Below are positions 608 through 17,627 of a stretch of 17,627 bases of DNA, piece after piece. The notes under the pieces are model-generated. The model was not told the DNA's origin. It saw nothing but the letters and a program-made list of their open reading frames with translations, and ran no database searches. The stretch's first letter is position 1. Each line of letters opens with the position of its first letter. This stretch comes from Chthoniobacteraceae bacterium. Lineage in GTDB: Bacteria > Verrucomicrobiota > Verrucomicrobiia > Chthoniobacterales > Chthoniobacteraceae. The DNA is taken from NCBI GenBank assembly GCA_031409335.1, contig JANNWY010000049.1:1-17627 (forward strand), given 5' to 3'. The translations under genes were made by a program, and so were the position numbers.

Positions 608-2458
608 ATGTATCTGTCTGAAATAAAATTGTGGAACTTCAGGAAGTATGGCTCCGCGACTCCTTTTGATCGCAAGACACCAAATTTAGTCGTTCCGTTC
701 AAGGATGGAGTCAACGTCCTCATCGGAGAGAACGATGCTGGGAAATCAGCGATTGTTGATGCAATCAGATTGGTGCTGGGAGCTCACAGCCTCGATTGGA
801 TCAAAGTCACACCGGAGGACTTTTTCACAGGTGCGGATCGTCTCCGCATTGAATTACGCTTTGATGCGCTATCGACTTCGGAGGGAAAAAACTTTACCGA
901 GTGGCTGGACTGGGACGGCGTTGGCGCAGCATCAACGTCTTGGCTTCGCGTATTCTATGAAGTAGTGCAGAAAGATGGACGGCCTTTGCCTTCCGATGTA
1001 AAGGCCGGTGCGGACGCGGAAGGACATCAGCTCAACGCAGAAGCCAAGGATTATCTCAGGATCACCTATTTGAAGCCACTGCGGGATGCGAAAGCGGAGC
1101 TAGTTCCTCGTCGCAATTCTCGGTTATCGCAGATCTTTCAAGGGCATGAAGCATTCAAGGGAAAGGCGGATACTCACTACCTCGTCGGCTTATTCAGCGA
1201 CTTCAACAAGGCTGTGACAGCCTATTTCAAGGGCACCGACGCCGCTGGCGAGGTGTTGACAGTAGATCAAAAAGGCAAAGAGTTGAAGGACGCGATCGAA
1301 ACCTATTTGCGGACCTTCACCGAAGCAACTACATCTATCGACATCGGAGTTGTAGATAACAACGATTTGCGCACGATTCTCGAAACGCTCGGATTGAGCA
1401 TTCTTGGTTCGGCCAATCCAGGGTTAGGCACATTAAATCGCATGTTTATGGCATCGGAACTGGTGCATGTGAACAAAGTGAACTGGTCCGGTCTGCGGCT
1501 GGCGCTGATCGAAGAGTTGGAGGCTCATCTCCATCCTCAAGCCCAAATGAAAGTCGTTGAAGGTCTTCAGAAAACGCACCGCCAACAGATTATCTTAACT
1601 TCTCATAGCCCCAATTTGGCTTCAAAGGTTCCGCTGAACAGTCTAATCATGCTAAACGGCAGGCAAGCGTTCCCAATGGGCAAAGCCCCGGACGGTTCAT
1701 CATATACCAAACTTGAAGATCCAGATCACGAGTTCCTTGAGCGGTTTCTCGACGTTACAAAATCCAACCTATTTTTTGCGAAGGGTGTCTTGATGGTCGA
1801 AGGATGGGCGGAAGAGATCCTTCTGCCTGCTCTGGCGTCGAAATTAAAGAGGGAGGGTCTGATTCCATGCGACTTGACCGAAGCAGGAGTCGCCGTGATA
1901 AACGTGGGCGGAACATCACAACTGCGCTACGCAAAGATTTTCTGTCGCGCTTATGGAGCGGAAATTGATGTCCCTGTAGCCGTCGTAACGGATGTGGACG
2001 TGCCCGTTGGGGAGCTACTCCCACCACCGGTCGGCTCTACAGAAAGCGCTTCATCAAAGCCGACGAGAATCTACTCGCCGCTGGCCCCTGAGGCGGTCGC
2101 CTCGGACACAACAACAAAGCTCTGCCACATTCGCCACAAATTTGACTGCCAAAAGGTAAAGGCGTTCGTGGCACCGCAATGGACGCTCGAATATTGTCTT
2201 TTCAAGTCATCCAGTCTCTCGATCTATTTCCAAGCCGCAGTGACGGCAGCTCATCCAGATTTTGACACCACAGCGTTTGAAGAACAACTCGGAGCGAAGC
2301 TAATTCGCCGGAGCCTTCACAAGGTCGAAATCGCTCAACATCTCGCTCATGCCATATCCGAAGATGCGGCTTTGCCGAACCCGATCATCAAAATCAATCC
2401 AGCGGATTCGTCAATCGCGTATCTTGTGGACGCGATAAAGTATGCATGTCGTGCCTGA
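608..2458 (+). CDS. gajA: OLD-family ATP-dependent nuclease (ABC ATPase + TOPRIM), Gabija GajA-like
   Basis: N-terminal MYLSEIKLWNFRK; Walker A GENDAGKS; Walker B/D-loop LIEELEAHLHP; H-loop LTSHSP; TOPRIM LFFAKGVLMVEGWAEEILLP and DxD motif VVTDVD. Overlaps a downstream UvrD-like gene. Confidence 0.88.
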   Translation: MYLSEIKLWNFRKYGSATPFDRKTPNLVVPFKDGVNVLIGENDAGKSAIVDAIRLVLGAHSLDWIKVTPEDFFTGADRLRIELRFDALSTSEGKNFTEWLDWDGVGAASTSWLRVFYEVVQKDGRPLPSDVKAGADAEGHQLNAEAKDYLRITYLKPLRDAKAELVPRRNSRLSQIFQGHEAFKGKADTHYLVGLFSDFNKAVTAYFKGTDAAGEVLTVDQKGKELKDAIETYLRTFTEATTSIDIGVVDNNDLRTILETLGLSILGSANPGLGTLNRMFMASELVHVNKVNWSGLRLALIEELEAHLHPQAQMKVVEGLQKTHRQQIILTSHSPNLASKVPLNSLIMLNGRQAFPMGKAPDGSSYTKLEDPDHEFLERFLDVTKSNLFFAKGVLMVEGWAEEILLPALASKLKREGLIPCDLTEAGVAVINVGGTSQLRYAKIFCRAYGAEIDVPVAVVTDVDVPVGELLPPPVGSTESASSKPTRIYSPLAPEAVASDTTTKLCHIRHKFDCQKVKAFVAPQWTLEYCLFKSSSLSIYFQAAVTAAHPDFDTTAFEEQLGAKLIRRSLHKVEIAQHLAHAISEDAALPNPIIKINPADSSIAYLVDAIKYACRA

Positions 2459-4499
2459 AATCACTGATACGGACATTGCGCTAGCGGAGAAGATTCTGCT
2501 TCCGCCGGGATTCGTATTCGATGATGAGCGCCGCGCTTTCATTCGTCGGCTGGATACTCTGGATTTGCACGCCGTGCCTGGCAGCGGCAAGACAACGGCA
2601 CTTCTTGCTAAGCTCCTAATACTTGAACGCTCCCTTCCGCTGGACGATGGGGCAGGCATTCTCGTTCTGTCCCACACAAACGCCGCAATCGACGAGGTTC
2701 GCCGAAAGCTCGGCCCCTACTGTAGCCAACTCTTCAACTACCCGAACTTCATAGGGACAATCCAAGGCTTTGTTGACCGCTTTCTCGCACTGCCCTTCTA
2801 CGCGGGGGCTTACAAACGCCAACCGTTGAGGATCGACAATGATCTTTATGGCGAAGTCACGCGTGCGTTTCCACAGGTATTTCTGAAAGATTTTGACTCT
2901 GCCGATCAGAACCGCGCGAAGTATTTCCTTCGGGGTAACGTAGAGTGCTGTGCGACATTTCGTTTTCGACTTGAGGAGGGGAAGACAAGGCTGACAAAAG
3001 GCATCAATGGACCCGAGCTAAAGATCAAGAAACCAACGCCGAAGACAGATTGGACGGAGTCAGAGAAGCAGAGAGTAGAGAAATGGCTGTTTGAATTCAA
3101 AAAGAGCATTTTAAGGCGAGGTATTCTCTGCTTTGACGATGCCTACTACTTGGCCTCTCTTTATCTCGCAAAGCGGCCTAGTGTTTCTGTGATTCTGCGC
3201 GAGCGCTTTCGGTATGTGTTCGTCGATGAGATGCAGGATATGGCCCCTCACCAACACGACCTTCTTGAACAGTTGTTCTCTCCGCACTCGTCAGAGAATT
3301 GTGGGTATCAGCGGATTGGAGACAGAAACCAAGCGATCCATGATACTTCGAGTAACGACCTCGACTGCTGTTGGATTACACGAAACACGGCTCTAGCGTT
3401 CTCCAATAGCTGCCGACTGCCTGCGCAAATTGCCAAAGCTGTCGAACCGTTTGCGCTTCACAGGACATCGGCTTTCCAAATTAACGGTCTTGGAAAATCC
3501 AGCATTTCCCCGAAACTTTTGGTGTTTGATGACCATTCTGTATCTCGGGTTATTCCAGAATTCTCAGCCTGTATTCAAAGGGAGATCAATAGCAATCAAT
3601 TGCCGCCTCTAAGTGAGTGCGTGTTCAAGGTCGTTGGTTGGAATACTGATTGGAATGCCGCCTTTGGAGAGACAGGAGTCGGGAAAAGGCGGGTGATTGA
3701 CTATTGGCCACAGTTCCAAAAGCGTGATTCTGCAACTCGAAGCGAATACTCAAGTTTATTGAGTTGCCTTCAAGCCGTCAGCGACGGTGCGACATCGCTA
3801 CGCCCTGCAATGGACGGAGTAATGAACGCTATCCTGAAGTCGCTACGGTTGGAGGGTGTGGTCAATCCAAACACGGACGCTACCTTTACTCGGCCAACAT
3901 TGTGGCACTATCTCAGGGAGAGCGAAGCGGAGGAGTATGACCGTTGGCGGAGTTCTGTGTATATGTGGACTGTTGCATTAAGGAAGGGACTTCGCGACCA
4001 AGTCCACGCTGGGATAAGAGCCGCCGTTCCTGGAATGCTCGCCATCTTTGAGAAGACGCTCAATCTTTCGACTGCTTTCGTAAACGGTGCGGATGTCACT
4101 CCCATTGCGGAGCCGCCGCAGGGCGCCGCGGCGAGTAATATGGTCAATCACCATGGATTCGACATTGAAGTAGCAAGCGTTCACAAGGTTAAAGGCCAAA
4201 CGCACACCGCGACCCTTTACCTCGAAACTGCGTTTTACACGGACGGAAAGGGTGCATCGGCAAAGTCCTATGAATCGCAGCGATTGGCCGCCCAGTTTCT
4301 CGGGACTCCGATGAACGGGAATGAGAGACGAGTGAGGGTTAAACAGTCCGCTAAGATGGTTTATGTCGGACTATCAAGACCGACCCATCTTTTGTGCGTA
4401 GCCGTCCATGAATCTCACTTTAATCAGTATTTAAGCACGATTGAGGAATCTGGTTGGGAACTTATTCGTATTCAAAGCGAAGGCAATACCGCCGGCTAA
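2442..4499 (+). CDS. gajB: UvrD/Rep-like SF1 helicase, Gabija GajB-like
   Basis: Motif I AVPGSGKTT, Ia LSHTNAA, Ib GTIQGF, II VFVDEMQD, III GDRNQAI, V SVHKVKG, VI YVGLSRP. Start overlaps the OLD gene stop; GTG at 2451 is an alternative start. Confidence 0.85.
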   Translation: MHVVPEITDTDIALAEKILLPPGFVFDDERRAFIRRLDTLDLHAVPGSGKTTALLAKLLILERSLPLDDGAGILVLSHTNAAIDEVRRKLGPYCSQLFNYPNFIGTIQGFVDRFLALPFYAGAYKRQPLRIDNDLYGEVTRAFPQVFLKDFDSADQNRAKYFLRGNVECCATFRFRLEEGKTRLTKGINGPELKIKKPTPKTDWTESEKQRVEKWLFEFKKSILRRGILCFDDAYYLASLYLAKRPSVSVILRERFRYVFVDEMQDMAPHQHDLLEQLFSPHSSENCGYQRIGDRNQAIHDTSSNDLDCCWITRNTALAFSNSCRLPAQIAKAVEPFALHRTSAFQINGLGKSSISPKLLVFDDHSVSRVIPEFSACIQREINSNQLPPLSECVFKVVGWNTDWNAAFGETGVGKRRVIDYWPQFQKRDSATRSEYSSLLSCLQAVSDGATSLRPAMDGVMNAILKSLRLEGVVNPNTDATFTRPTLWHYLRESEAEEYDRWRSSVYMWTVALRKGLRDQVHAGIRAAVPGMLAIFEKTLNLSTAFVNGADVTPIAEPPQGAAASNMVNHHGFDIEVASVHKVKGQTHTATLYLETAFYTDGKGASAKSYESQRLAAQFLGTPMNGNERRVRVKQSAKMVYVGLSRPTHLLCVAVHESHFNQYLSTIEESGWELIRIQSEGNTAG

Positions 4500-4556: not shown

Positions 4557-5474
4557 TTAGGCCAAGAGACTCACGAGGTGACTGGTGGTGCTGCGCCAAA
4601 GCGGGGCAAGACAGGTCGCAGGTGAGAAGCCCGACGTGATGTGAGTTTGCAAAAAGATGCCGTGACCGCCGGAGACGGCGGAGGCTGCGGTGCGGATGCT
4701 TTCGCATCTGCTTTCAATCGACGTGACGGTGAGGACGCGGACGCGCGATATGCCGAATCGGGAACGGTGGATGCCGACTTTCCAAGTCAGGGAGTAGGCG
4801 TAGAGTTTTCGCGCGATGGAAGTCGCGTCGTGCTTCGCTCGCTCCACCGGCATCGTCCCGCGGTCGGCTTCCAGGAAGCAGAGGATGCGCTCGCCTTTGT
4901 CGCCAGACTCCAGCGCGAAGACGCGATCAGGAATGACGCCGAGCTTTTCATTTCCCGAACCCGTCACCGTCCATTGAAAGGGCGCACGCTCATTGCGCGT
5001 CGTGGTGGGGAGTGGGATTTCGTGTTCGATGAGCAGGCGCACGTCTTCGCGCTGCCGACACGCGATTTCCAGCGCCACCATGATGTCGGAAACCATCAGC
5101 GCGTGCTCAAGGAAGAGGCGTTTGACGGAGCGGTTGCGTGAAGTCCAGTCCATGCGAGAAAATGGAATGTCGTCCATTCGGCGAAGGTGCGCGGCTCCAC
5201 GGCTGGCGAGACCGTAGGCGATGCTCCGTGAGCCGCCTTGCTGGTAGTAGTCGATCTGACAGGCCGGGCGCTCCAGGTAGCTGTGTTGGTAGAGCCGTTG
5301 CAGACGGCGGAGCACCTGCTGACGGCTGCCGCCCACGAGGTCGGCGATTTGGTGAGAGCGCAAGAAGCGGTGCCGATTCACCATGCGAAGAATTTCCGTG
5401 TCGCGCGCGGTCATTTCCATCGAAACAAATTTGTCCACGCGCCGAAAGCGCGGATGGCGGGGGAACGTCATCAC
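4557..5474 (-). CDS. Replication-relaxation (Replic_Relax) family protein
   Basis: N-terminal wHTH-like TARDTEILRMVNRHRFLRSHQIADL...RRLQRLY; LEHALMVSD; PD-(D/E)XK-like IPDRVFAL...FLEADRGTMP; RKLYAY; RVLTVT. Start is GTG 5474 or ATG 5471. Confidence 0.85.
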   Translation of the reverse strand: MMTFPRHPRFRRVDKFVSMEMTARDTEILRMVNRHRFLRSHQIADLVGGSRQQVLRRLQRLYQHSYLERPACQIDYYQQGGSRSIAYGLASRGAAHLRRMDDIPFSRMDWTSRNRSVKRLFLEHALMVSDIMVALEIACRQREDVRLLIEHEIPLPTTTRNERAPFQWTVTGSGNEKLGVIPDRVFALESGDKGERILCFLEADRGTMPVERAKHDATSIARKLYAYSLTWKVGIHRSRFGISRVRVLTVTSIESRCESIRTAASAVSGGHGIFLQTHITSGFSPATCLAPLWRSTTSHLVSLLA

Positions 5475-5488
5475 CGCATTTTACCATG
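5335..5488. repeat. 154-bp direct repeat, copy 1 (5' end of the intact relaxase gene plus ~17 bp upstream of the ATG)
   Basis: Ungapped hand alignment to 15270-15423 gives 16 mismatches in 154 bp (~90% identity). Confidence 0.95.
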
Positions 5489-13792: not shown

Positions 13793-15142
13793 CTAGGCGA
13801 TGAGTTCCGTCAGCACCTTGCCGCCATCCACGATTTCGATGGGACGGTCGCCGGGTGCCATGAGTTCCTTGTCCGCAACGATGCCGAGCTGGTGGTAAAT
13901 CGTCGTCGCGAAATCCTCGACGGTGAGCGGTTTCTCGTCCGGCTCCGACGCGGTCGCGTCCGACGAACCATAGACCGAGCCCTTTTTGATCCCACCGCCG
14001 GCGAGCACCACGCTGAAAACCTTCGGCCAGTGGTCGCGCCCTGCAGTGGCGTTGATTTTCGGCGTCCGCCCAAACTCGCTGCTCACGACGACGAGCGTCG
14101 AGTCGAGCAACCCGCGCTGCGCGAGGTCTGTGATGAGCATCGCAAACGCCTGGTCGAACGGCGGCATCTGGCCATTGATGGCTCCCGCAATGTTGTCGTG
14201 ATGATCCCAGCCGCCAAACGTCAGCGACACCATCCGCACGCCCGACTCGACAAGCCGGCGGGCCAGCAGCATCCGCATGCCCGCCGCGTTCCGACCGTAG
14301 GCGTCCTTCAGCGCATCCGGCTCGGCCTTCATGTTGAAGGCCTCGCGCGCCTCCGCCGAACTCAACAGCCCGTAAGCGCGCTGGTAGAAAGTGTCCATCG
14401 CATCCAGCGCGTCGGATTTTTCCAGAGTCCGGAAATGCGAGTCCACCGACTGTAACATCGTCTTCGCCTTCGCAAACCGCTCCGGGGTCACGCCGCCCGG
14501 AAGCACGAGGTCTTTCACCTGGAAATTCGCATCCGCCGGGTCCGACCCCAGCGAAAACGGCCCATACGCCGAACTGAGATAGCCGCTCCCCGCGTATTCA
14601 TTCGGCATGCTCGGAACGCACACATACGGCGGCAGATTCTTGCGCGGCCCGAACTCGTGCGAAATCACCGCTCCAAACGACGGATACGAAAGCGCCGGAC
14701 TCGGCCGGTAGCCGGTGAACATATTGTGCGTCCCGCGCTCATGAGCCGCCTCGCCATGCGTCATCGAGCGACACACCGTGATCTTGTCCGCGATCTGCGC
14801 CGTTTTCGCGAGGTTCTGACTGAACAGCACGCCATCGAGTTTCGTCGGCACCGTCCCTAGGGACCCGCGATACTCTACCGGCGCATACGGCTTCGGATCC
14901 CACGATTCCTGATGCGCCATCCCCCCAGGCAGGAAGATATGAATGATGCTCTTCGCCGGCCCTTCTTTCGACTCGTAAAACTTGGTCTCCCCCCGCGCCG
15001 TCATGCGGAAATAATCGCCTAGCGTAATTCCCAGACCGGCCACAAAACCGACCTGCAAAAAGCTGCGTCGTGCCATCCCCTTCGGTCGAAGGAAGTGCGC
15101 GGGGTCATCGTTCCAAGTGCCTGTTATTTTGCGATCATTCAT
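13793..15142 (-). CDS. DUF1501 family protein with twin-arginine-type signal
   Basis: ARRSFLQVG Tat-like motif; IHIFLPGGMAHQESWDPKP; LLARRLVESGVR; GWDHH; DLAQRGLLDSTLVVVSSEFGRTPKIN; GRDHWP; LAGGGIKKG; TIYHQLGI. Confidence 0.93.
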   Translation of the reverse strand: MNDRKITGTWNDDPAHFLRPKGMARRSFLQVGFVAGLGITLGDYFRMTARGETKFYESKEGPAKSIIHIFLPGGMAHQESWDPKPYAPVEYRGSLGTVPTKLDGVLFSQNLAKTAQIADKITVCRSMTHGEAAHERGTHNMFTGYRPSPALSYPSFGAVISHEFGPRKNLPPYVCVPSMPNEYAGSGYLSSAYGPFSLGSDPADANFQVKDLVLPGGVTPERFAKAKTMLQSVDSHFRTLEKSDALDAMDTFYQRAYGLLSSAEAREAFNMKAEPDALKDAYGRNAAGMRMLLARRLVESGVRMVSLTFGGWDHHDNIAGAINGQMPPFDQAFAMLITDLAQRGLLDSTLVVVSSEFGRTPKINATAGRDHWPKVFSVVLAGGGIKKGSVYGSSDATASEPDEKPLTVEDFATTIYHQLGIVADKELMAPGDRPIEIVDGGKVLTELIA

Positions 15143-15250
15143 GCGGAGATGGAGTGCTGAGTTGCCTGTGAGGTTGCAAGTTGCGTGTTAAATTGACTGA
15201 CCCTGCTCGAAAGGGCTTCTTAGAAGCTCAGGCTGTTCGTCGGAAAACAC

Positions 15251-15406
15251 TTATTTTGAGATGTTTAGGACGAGATCAGCGATTTGATGCGAGTGCAAAA
15301 AGCGGTGGCGATTCACCATGCGAAGAATCTCCGTGTCACGCGCCGTCATTTCCATCGGAGCAAAGTTGTCCACGCGCCGAAAGCGCGGATGCCGGGGGAA
15401 CGTCAT
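15251..15406 (-). pseudogene. Truncated second replication-relaxation gene (first 46 codons only)
   Basis: MTFPRHPRFRRVDNFAPMEMTARDTEILRMVNRHRFLHSHQIADLV then LNISK-stop; 42 of 46 residues identical to the N-terminus of 4557..5474. Confidence 0.92.
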
Positions 15407-15423
15407 CGCCGCATTCTACCATG
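15270..15423. repeat. 154-bp direct repeat, copy 2
   Basis: Matches 5335-5488 at an offset of 9935 bp, ~90% identity, no gaps. Confidence 0.95.
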
Positions 15424-15941
15424 AGGACACGCAAGAAAGGCCGACGGTTGTTCACAGCTCCAATGGAAGACAATGGAATGCGGCCCTTGCGCACGCGCGG
15501 GCGAGGATCCTCGCCCTGAGTCAGCCAGCGATTGATCTTCTCCTCCACCTCCGCACGGGGTGCGGCGTATTTTTCGCGCGAGCGGGCGATGAGCTTTTCG
15601 CGCCTACCGAAGCTGTGCTCGATGGGAGGGAGGGTTTTCGCACGGAAGGGTTCGCGCGTTCTGCCGTTCTCGGCGAGACGCGCGATGACTTCGTAGCGAT
15701 CAAGGCCGGTGAAGGTTTCCAGCGGGTAGGTGTTCCCGAACTCTTTGTGCAAAACCTCGGCGTCGGAGTGGCCGATGCGGAAGGACACAAGGGAGCCGAC
15801 ATTGCCAAAGACCGCGCCGCGCACGGTCGGCGGCACCTGCTCGATGTATTGGTGCGAGAGCGCGAGGCAGAGCCGATATTTCCTGGCTTCGGTGTGGATC
15901 GCGGCGAAGGCGTCGGTGGTCAAATTGTGGAATTCGTCGAT
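15336..15941 (-). pseudogene. 3' fragment of a VirD4/TraG-like type IV coupling protein ATPase gene
   Basis: In frame from 15941: IDEFHNLTTDAFAAIHTEARKYRLCLALSHQYIEQVPPTVRGAVFGNVGSLVSFRIGHSDAEVL...SREKYA...EVEEKINRWL. An in-frame TAA (15942-15944) lies immediately upstream, and no Walker A half is present. Confidence 0.87.
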
Positions 15942-15976
15942 TTATGTGGACCACCACATAAATCGACGAGTTCCAC
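15927..15976. repeat. Inverted repeat: 23-bp arms (1 mismatch), 4-nt loop
   Basis: GTGGAATTCGTCGATTTATGTGG (15927-15949), ACCA, CCACATAAATCGACGAGTTCCAC (15954-15976). Confidence 0.97.
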
Positions 15977-16099
15977 TGCTTCATCACGCCTTCGATGGCG
16001 GAGATTTTGACCGGTGCGCGAAAGTATCGTGTCGGCCTCACGCTCGCCCATCAAGAGTTGAGGCAACTCAATTCAAGCGATGAAGTGGCGGGTGCGGTT
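15962..16099 (+). pseudogene. Internal fragment of a second, different VirD4/TraG-like ATPase gene, cut at its 3' side by the IS3 element
   Basis: Hand translation (not in the ORF track): IDEFHCFITPSMAEILTGARKYRVGLTLAHQELRQLNSSDEVAGAV. Same DEFH / ARKYR / L.HQ / AV pattern as the minus-strand fragment. Preceded by TAA and followed directly by the IS left end. Confidence 0.85.
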
Positions 16100-16187
16100 T
16101 GAGGTGGACCCCGAAAATCGGGCCAGAGGTTAAGCTATAAAATGGCGGTGGGAGCGCGTGTAAAAACGCAGCATAAAACCACCGAAA

Positions 16188-16484
16188 ATGAAGAGCAAAC
16201 GCAAGCGGCATGAAGCCGCATTCAAAGCCCGGGTCGCCCTTGAGGCGCTCAAGGGAGTCAAAACCATCCAGCAAATCGCCAGCGAATACGGGGTGCATCC
16301 GGTCCAGGTTTCGGACTGGAAGAAGACCCTGCAGGAACGCATGGCGGGCGTGTTCGACAAGAACGCGCAGACGGGTGCGCCGGAGAGCTTCGAGAAGGAG
16401 CGCGCCGAACTGCACGAGACGATCGGGAAACTGACGGTCCAAGTGGATTTCCTGACAAAAAAATCCAAACAACTCGGCCTATGA
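16188..16484 (+). CDS. IS3-family transposase OrfA (HTH)
   Basis: KRKRHEAAFKARVALEALKG.KTIQQIASEYGVHPVQVSDWKK HTH; ELHETIGKLTVQVDFLTKK zipper-like end. Confidence 0.93.
   Translation: MKSKRKRHEAAFKARVALEALKGVKTIQQIASEYGVHPVQVSDWKKTLQERMAGVFDKNAQTGAPESFEKERAELHETIGKLTVQVDFLTKKSKQLGL
16457..16463 (+). promoter_or_regulatory. Putative -1 programmed frameshift site (A AAA AAA) fusing OrfA to OrfB
   Basis: OrfA reads ACA AAA AAA TCC. The -1 frame reads AAA AAA ATC CAA ACA ACT CGG CCT ATG AGC with no stop into OrfB. Confidence 0.75.
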
Positions 16485-17353
16485 GCGGGCGTGCCGAGTT
16501 GGTCGAAAAAGGACATCCGCAACTGAGTGTGAGGGAGCAATGCCAGATGCTGGACATCGCGCGTTCGACGCTCGATTACCAGCCGGTGCCTGAGAGCGCG
16601 GAGGATCGAAAGATCAAGCGGCTCATGGACGAGACCTACCTGCGCGACGCCTGCCTGGGGACACGCCGACTGGTGACGGTGCTGGAACGCGACCACGGGC
16701 TGGTGGTAAATCGAAAGCGGTTGCAGCGGCTGCGGCGCGAGATGGGACTGGAGACGATCTACTGCCGGCCGCGGACGAGCGTGCCGGACCGGGAACATGT
16801 CAAGTATCCCTACCTGCTGCGGGAGTTGGCCATCACCCGGCCCAACCAGGTCTGGTGTGCGGACATCACCTACGTGCCGATGCCGCACGGCCATGCGTTT
16901 CTGTGCGCGGTGATGGACTGGCACTCGCGCAAAGTCCTCGGCTGGGCGTTGAGCAACACGATGGACGTGGCGCTGGTGGTGGCGGCGTTCACGCAGGCCG
17001 TGGGCGATGGCAGCGTGCTGCCCGAAATCATGAACACCGACCAGGGCAGCCAGTTCACGGCGGTGGAATGGATCGAGGAACTCAAGAGCCGCGCGATCGC
17101 CATCAGTATGGACGGCAAGGGGCGGTGGATGGACAACGTGTTCATCGAGCGGCTGTGGCGGAGCGTCAAATACGAGGACATCTACCTGCACGAATACGCG
17201 ACCATCGCCGCGCTGGAGGCGGGGCTGCGGCGGTGGTTCGAGCAATACAACCACTGGCGGCCCCACGAGTCGCTTGGCGGAGAAACCCCGGCGCAAGTGC
17301 ATGGGAAAAAGCCGGCGGCCGAGAGCGCGGCGCCATTGAAAACCGCGGCATGA
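16481..17353 (+). CDS. IS3-family transposase OrfB (DDE integrase core)
   Basis: PNQVWCADITY, AVMDWHSRKVLGW, NTDQGSQF, MDGKGRWMDNVFIERLWRSVKYE, YNHWRPHESLGGETP; ATGA overlap with the orfA stop. Confidence 0.95.
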   Translation: MSGRAELVEKGHPQLSVREQCQMLDIARSTLDYQPVPESAEDRKIKRLMDETYLRDACLGTRRLVTVLERDHGLVVNRKRLQRLRREMGLETIYCRPRTSVPDREHVKYPYLLRELAITRPNQVWCADITYVPMPHGHAFLCAVMDWHSRKVLGWALSNTMDVALVVAAFTQAVGDGSVLPEIMNTDQGSQFTAVEWIEELKSRAIAISMDGKGRWMDNVFIERLWRSVKYEDIYLHEYATIAALEAGLRRWFEQYNHWRPHESLGGETPAQVHGKKPAAESAAPLKTAA

Positions 17354-17400
17354 ACCCGACCCCAAGCGCAAACCCGAACAAGGCAGGGAGGGATTTTGCA

Positions 17401-17494
17401 TCCGCTTTTTTGCTCCTCCACTCCGGGCGGCTGCGAGCCTCACCGCTACGCTCCGAGGCTCTTGCCGCCCTCCGTTCCGGAGCAAAAAAGCGGA
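17401..17494. repeat. Long nested stem-loop in the IS 3' non-coding region
   Basis: TCCGCTTTTTTGCTCC (17401-17416) / GGAGCAAAAAAGCGGA (17479-17494), perfect 16 bp; inner GGGCGGC/GCCGCCC and GAGCCTC/GAGGCTC; loop ACCGCTACGCTCC. Confidence 0.9.
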
Positions 17495-17627
17495 GCCCCC
17501 TCGGCAGAACCACCCACAAAGCAGCTCCCGTATTGACCTCAATCCCCGAATCATCCACCACTCTCACACGCCACCCCGCCATAGCTTAATTGCTAGCCAC
17601 TCTGGCCGGATTCCGGGGTCCACCTCA

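Follow-up and report, generated by a model that had tools for sequence, protein, structure and literature searches.

The locus described here raises the question of how the 3′ halves of two different conjugation genes came to stand back-to-back across a short palindrome, and of what left that palindrome between them. The window, by which we mean the whole analysed stretch of 17,627 nucleotides, is contig C49 of a Chthoniobacteraceae genome of 7.9 Mb in 326 contigs. The DUF1501 and PSCyt genes of the window are in keeping with a PVC-group bacterium. The core of the palindrome, hereafter P, is 20 bp long with an 8-4-8 layout, in agreement with a sequence-only reading of the window. That reading was also correct in what it saw outward from P: both strands give CCACATAA and then ATC GAC GAR TTC CAC, with the translations IDEFHNLTTDAFAAIHTEARKYRLCLALSH on the minus and IDEFHCFITPSMAEILTGARKYRVGLTLAH on the plus strand. 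Perfect arms around P extend over 16 nt (15934-15949 and 15954-15969). P was the sole hairpin with arms of at least 12 nt within the window, and one of two with arms of at least 16 nt in the 2.25 Mb held by the genome's contigs under 25 kb, the other being a copy adjacent to a recombinase-in-trio (RIT) element on contig C9; the loop of the window P is asymmetric and differs from the loop of the C9 copy. The window holds P alone, with no recombinase genes between ends, and thus holds a footprint, not an element: the 20-bp P between two coupling-gene 3′ halves is the footprint of a RIT. The features are collected in Table 1.

Table 1. Features around the palindromic module P, in window coordinates.
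Feature	Position	Strand	Remarks
Palindromic module P	15942..15961	.	Two putative outward-facing recombinase boxes, 4-nt loop; solo; same arms at C9:21344-21363
6-bp crossover spacer, virD4-B side	15936..15941	-	ATCGAC read outwards; codes for Walker B Ile-Asp
6-bp crossover spacer, virD4-A side	15962..15967	+	ATCGAC
VirD4/TrwB-like gene B, 3′ half	15336..15941	-	Open for 201 codons, about 147 of them homologous
VirD4/TrwB-like gene A, 3′ half, first 46 codons	15962..16099	+	5′ half on C284 at RIT right end; remainder on C48
IS3-family element	16100..17627	+	Pfam HTH_Tnp_1 and rve; terminal inverted repeats; 3-bp target duplication
Replic_Relax relaxase gene, truncated start	15270..15423	-	Downstream from gene B; matches 5335-5488 at 90% identity
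Window part of putatively inverted segment	1..15941	.	About 26 kb together with C284 and the RIT

The two halves belong to distinct paralogues, as had been proposed: the minus-strand half (gene B) is 62-76% identical to four B-type relatives and 44% identical to a fifth, and the plus-strand half (gene A) is 76-78% identical to A-type relatives. The proposed position of the cut, at Walker B codons, was correct. With a TrwB-type ATPase domain, Walker A and B motifs and a relaxase gene (Replic_Relax) nearby, the cut genes are VirD4/TrwB-like and are predicted to encode coupling proteins; matches to TrwB_AAD_bind and DUF87 were found in the A 5′ half and in a B-type 5′ half on contig C275 (weak, E about 3e-7), and the 3′ halves alone matched no Pfam family. 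A search for the missing 5′ halves succeeded for gene A and failed for gene B. The gene A 5′ half, with 676 codons of which the last encode FWCYVD, lies on contig C284, and since a contig from run X4 carries it joined directly to window positions 15963-16078, uninterrupted and with 1 difference, the C284 half and the window half are one gene. No 5′ half belonging to gene B was found in the genome; the one on C275 was considered and rejected as that of another paralogue (3/36 nt differ). The sequence-only reading had held that CCACATAA ahead of Walker B in intact homologues would speak against a scar; it occurred at 0 of the 16 intact sites located among 26 homologue loci (8 without the motif, 1 with the wrong motif and 1 being the split gene itself). 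The hexamer ATCGAC is native in 6 of 8 intact B-type genes. On the A side its first position is G in the uninterrupted allele versus A in the window copy, so this spacer copy probably arrived with the element; the last base of the hexamer in the intact gene A is uncertain, and the one difference in the X4 contig has no located position.

Downstream of gene B, the relatives run on into a relaxase gene. In the window the relaxase start is duplicated (5335-5488 and 15270-15423; 154 bp, 90%) around a 10-kb host-type cassette containing WD40/PSCyt1, DUF1549/1553, PPC and DUF1501, and no RIT site was found at the joins of the duplicated start. A Gabija defence pair, GajA-GajB, lies at 608-4499 (PADLOC E 7e-199 and 1e-222) inside the conjugative-type element, in a region of 51% GC versus about 62% around it. 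On the other side of P, the A 3′ half stops at 16099 because an IS3-family element inserted there with a 3-bp duplication, and gene A resumes on C48. No RIT sites were found at the ends of this IS3 element, which is multicopy, at least 13 other contig ends matching its termini over about 140 nt.

A complete RIT accompanied by P is present in the same genome. On C9, a copy of P with arms identical to the window's (21344-21363) is followed by ATCGAC and then by the left end of a 3,535-bp element (C9:21370-24904), the 91-bp inverted ends of which are 97.8% identical. The element encodes two Phage_integrase domains in a fused 776-aa frame and one in a 345-aa frame, all in the same direction, with a GTGA overlap between the fused frame and ritC, and all three recombinase domains carry the R, H-x-LRH and Y motifs. 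Its three adjacent co-directional recombinases, gene overlap, length, inverted repeats and flanking palindrome identify it as a RIT. The fusion of RitA and RitB is also seen at loci L198, L206 and L218, and the proteins share 28-41% identity with a trio on C14 and up to 61% with trios from scan loci. The earlier idea of a tyrosine-recombinase footprint, with RITs as a possible source, is confirmed by the adjacency of the same P to this element. The accompanying suggestion that the recombinase had been lost does not hold: a RIT with all three catalytic motif sets lies two 141-nt contig overlaps away, about 22 kb from the window along the contig-overlap path.

On its other side, the C9 copy of P adjoins a HEPN 3′ half, this gene too being cut at ATCGAC, and on C284 the RIT right end and ATCGAC adjoin the gene A 5′ half. 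C9, C284 and C49 are linked by the two overlaps, and the spacers at all five junctions along this path are one hexamer or its reverse complement. The path is likely rather than proven, since contig C213, which holds a 93% similar second copy of the element's primase region with an internal 156-bp duplication, also overlaps the window start. A second, unrelated RIT (C14:32058-35511) has a different 8-4-8 palindrome at its ritC end and is inserted in repeated, non-coding-looking sequence; an empty paralogous site on C228 (about 25830) shows the 6-bp target without this palindrome. Comparison of filled with empty sites suggests that RITs are mobile.

To place P in a wider context, we scanned other genomes, obtaining at least 121 genome loci and 34 viral loci, which gave 139 distinct sites among the matches listed. 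Recurrence of the motif at element ends, anticipated by the sequence-only reading, was found at 73 of these 139 sites, which lie beside a RIT end; 65 were solo and 1 was at an edge. The solo count is an upper bound, since it includes chance matches and RIT ends missed by the filter; several solo sites were chance matches inside ordinary genes (DnaJ, S11, NeuB, GH95, HNH). Many complete elements read, in order, gene 5′ half, 6 bp, RIT, inverted 6 bp, P, 6 bp and gene 3′ half, so that the core, earlier taken for two fused element ends, is instead an intact module at one end of complete elements. Among the matches listed, which comprise 46 rows with two entries for any element that has P at both ends, 25 have identical outer spacers and 26 have an inner spacer reverse-complementary to the spacer beside P; about 20 of the 46 rows depart from these ideal relations. 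Translation showed istB to be colinear across the element in 7 loci among the matches listed. P lay at the ritA end in 30 cases and at the ritC end in 56, again among the matches listed, as is predicted if there are two equivalent donor sites. P was present at both RIT ends at L052, L056, L096, L175, L179, L190, L218, L219 and L222; several of these elements have the same 3′ half on either side and may be inversion isomers merged in assembly.

Solo P between two 3′ halves was also found outside this genome. Back-to-back IS66 halves occur in a Pseudoduganella isolate and in the closed chromosome of Sorangium So ce1000, and back-to-back integrase halves in an actinomycete bin. Nine solo sites with a flank on each side were obtained from metagenomes, and istB lay on both sides in 4 of them (L196, L207, L214, L216); a tblastx comparison of high-GC solo sites gave homologous 3′ halves on both sides in 3 of 42 among the matches listed. 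At L093, Walker B-like starts lie on either side, with a Pfam match on one only. L131 was dropped as a back-to-back IS66 case, its left side being an integrase end. A betaproteobacteria-rich group of solo sites (L046, L054, L059, L070, L087, L119, L143, L152) has TCGGCC/GGCCGA spacers and unrelated flanks, which suggests that the RIT lineage concerned is hardly selective about its target apart from the spacer. Also counted among the solo sites, loci of many streptococci (L043, L045, L069, L075, L081 and others) carry the same 8-4-8 palindrome in AT-rich sequence, where runs of A and T flank it and the vicinity has no RIT match; this is probably a separate regulatory or structural site.

No second junction of P with virD4 was found in 150 genomes of the family or in the scan loci among the matches listed. 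In 400 genomes of the phylum, exact P occurred in 1 other genome, at two sites with no virD4 in the flanks; the junction pattern gave 4 matches in the 150 family genomes, none with P, and a viral scan for arm plus spacer gave 8 loci, none with P upstream. The reciprocal product, a RIT between two 5′ halves, was not found in 5 genomes with solo sites; at E 1e-40, RitC was unmatched in four of the five, and in the fifth one end could be recognised.

The sequence into which this RIT lineage inserts was examined by a metagenome scan for P with ATCGAC, which returned 65 loci. These correspond to 63 distinct sites, of which 44 are of the RIT/flank type, 9 are flank/flank and the other 10 lie at contig edges. 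The outer flanks started with GA in 63 of 68 cases, versus a background of 15% (1,513 of 10,002 such hexamers in this genome), and did so in 24 of the 26 cases where the outer spacer differed from the one searched. IS21 IstB accounted for 43 of the 53 translatable same-spacer flanks, all from model position 159 and cut at one Walker B position; the others included ExeA-like and unrelated genes, and none was virD4. The ATCGAC lineage favours GA-n-n-T-n-GG, the Walker B coding sequence of IS21 istB, and the two virD4-like sites are secondary targets, since they match only GA-n-n-T of this consensus. The nearest relatives of the RIT (RitC 61%, fused RitAB 51%) sit in istB; one query found no istB in this genome. 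In the habitat runs, P also adjoins a third virD4 paralogue and istB, its contexts there including a B paralogue, an A-like gene and an istB.

The earlier proposal that the two halves were joined by inversion or deletion fits the gene order of the relatives. Of 7 relatives that have both genes on one contig, 6 carry them co-oriented with B upstream of A. In this genome the A 3′ half is oriented against both the B 3′ half and the A 5′ half, which implies an inversion. The C9 palindrome and the window palindrome are 25,938 bp apart, and the window part of the segment between them holds the primase, Gabija, the relaxase, the 10-kb cassette and the gene B 3′ half. Most likely, P is a piece carried by the RIT, and reuse of an inner site left it between the two 3′ halves, apparently by inversion.

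Starting from the observed anatomy of the junctions, the linkage of the gene halves and the recurrence of the layout, we propose a chemistry, a circular intermediate and an order of events. The mobile unit would consist of the RIT, a 6-bp spacer and P, and its donor site would run from one P arm across the 6-bp spacer into a RIT end. On recombination with a target, the RIT end would be joined to the gene 5′ half and P to the 3′ half. Since P is symmetric, an excised circle should hold two equivalent donor sites. Integration would consume one of them, and the inner RIT/P joint would survive, which, judging by the layout of complete elements, could serve as the second. If this inner site then recombined in cis with another target or junction, a 3′ half-P-3′ half arrangement would result, by inversion or deletion. 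In the simplest local history, RIT plus P would first have inserted in genes B and A, the order of events not being fixed; a deletion from one inner site to the HEPN gene would have removed the B 5′ half with that RIT, and an inversion of ~26 kb would then have produced the window junction. Extra events or a collapsed second RIT copy have to be assumed because the RIT left end has a second P and the HEPN half, not the B 5′ half that a simple one-step model would predict. This four-event history would account for every junction and for both loop variants; a second RIT copy that had been collapsed would be compatible as well.

The sequence-only reading had favoured a dedicated parasite of conjugative elements that targets virD4, and had likened P to Xer/dif sites; we consider either source very improbable. 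Two virD4 paralogues are hit here and a third carries P in the habitat, and the inverted segment has just one other hexamer-GA-n-n-T site, all of which speaks for a virD4 parasite. The flank identities nevertheless largely refute virD4-specific targeting: istB predominates among the same-spacer flanks, the closest RIT relatives sit in istB, and a HEPN gene was cut in this very genome. As regards Xer/dif, the likeness lies in the arm-6 bp-arm layout, a 6-bp overlap between inverted boxes that is shared with Tn916-type systems, and Tn916 tolerates mismatched spacers. However, dif sites are 28 bp long, occur singly and outside genes, have different arms for XerC and XerD and do not depend on an element, whereas P has two identical arms, is found inside coding sequence in two copies in the genome, travels with the element and tracks RIT trios across taxa, not Xer. 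RITs differ from Tn916 in lacking conjugation genes and an excisionase. A route without an inner donor site, by homologous recombination between RIT copies or hairpin repair by the host followed by loss of the RIT, seems quite unlikely. Elements with P at both ends (L052, L056, L096, L190) are what recombination of flipped copies would give, and at L105, L120 and L160 a solo P stands between direct rather than inverted 6-bp repeats, as if a RIT had excised leaving P, so that P can be left in other ways; in G570, a flank related to these occurs elsewhere next to a RIT end. Yet both joins fall exactly at the 6-bp spacer and share one polarity, in which P faces the 3′ half, here as well as in istB and IS66, and recombination within RIT bodies cannot set two 3′ halves directly on one P.

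The junction could also be an assembly chimera, in which the assembler merged two real RIT junctions of separate molecules, one P with the B 3′ half and the other P with the A 3′ half, across the 32-bp spacer-P-spacer that they share. We regard this as quite improbable, although the genome is a draft of 326 contigs and its habitat has P in several contexts (the B paralogue, the A-like gene and istB). Contigs of 4 runs from one study were also compared with positions 15100-16300 (habitat runs with small word shares were left out), and none among the matches listed bridges the exact junction, a result which, with contig data and a shared palindrome, is evidence neither way. Against a chimera, the 141-nt contig overlaps suggest a word length far above 32, the asymmetric loop is unlike the loop on C9, the path agrees with a single inversion of the gene order seen in relatives, and the same architecture is present in an isolate and in a closed genome. 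P and the Walker B cuts would remain RIT products in any case.

Earlier publications cover the RIT family, its palindrome and its insertion into mobile genes. A literature search, with most subscription papers and theses outside its scope, found no solo scar, second donor site or Walker B targeting. Ricker 2013 or the author's thesis reportedly treats target genes and the palindrome, so parts of this story may be in print. In the accessible sections of the published accounts, RIT trios are characterised by size, by an inverted repeat of 28-29 bp beside which a palindrome lies, and by their insertion into radC and transposase genes (PMC3414803 section 11; PMC2864759), palindromic ends and protected intermediates are described (PMC5737581) and subgroups are defined (PMC8138268); in a 2023 paper the target specificity and movement of RITs stand among the untested points, and SE elements and Tn554 are described as leaving 6-bp footprints (PMC10214605). 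As far as these sections go, the C9 element resembles the ritABC RIT of Cupriavidus metallidurans CH34 and its relatives in its size of about 3.5 kb, serial recombinase domains, 4-bp gene overlap and terminal inverted repeats, and published RITs in general in its palindrome at one flank and its insertion into mobile-element genes (radC, IS66 tnpA and a transposase in those cases). It differs from those described there in the fusion of RitA and RitB in one frame, in an inverted repeat match of 91 bp versus the 28-34 reported, in its Walker B coding target and in the solo P between two 3′ halves. Van Houdt 2012 gave no convincing binding-site layout; the present sequences read as box-6 bp-box. 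According to the parts consulted, SE elements, GInts and Tn554 (PMC10214605) are likewise multi-recombinase systems with a target preference and a 6-bp donor spacer carried to the new site, but have a different gene set and neither a palindromic terminal module nor a second donor site.

New in this case are virD4-like targets and the cognate element, along with every piece of one cut gene and an intact allele of it. Because the locus names the donor site, the polarity, the spacer, natural targets and a product of rearrangement, and the habitat also contains the intact allele, a plasmid assay can be designed directly. The 20-bp signature lets annotators spot breakpoints made by RITs, and the locus shows transfer genes of one mobile element that were broken by a second. 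More tentatively, and with a likelihood that we put somewhat short of even, an integrated RIT may stay an active centre which, through a portable palindromic adapter with two equivalent donor sites, inverts, deletes and fuses nearby mobile elements at conserved motif codons. If so, such RITs would disarm conjugative elements as well as IS21, and excision could create in-frame hybrids of paralogous ATPases, every cut falling at the same codon.
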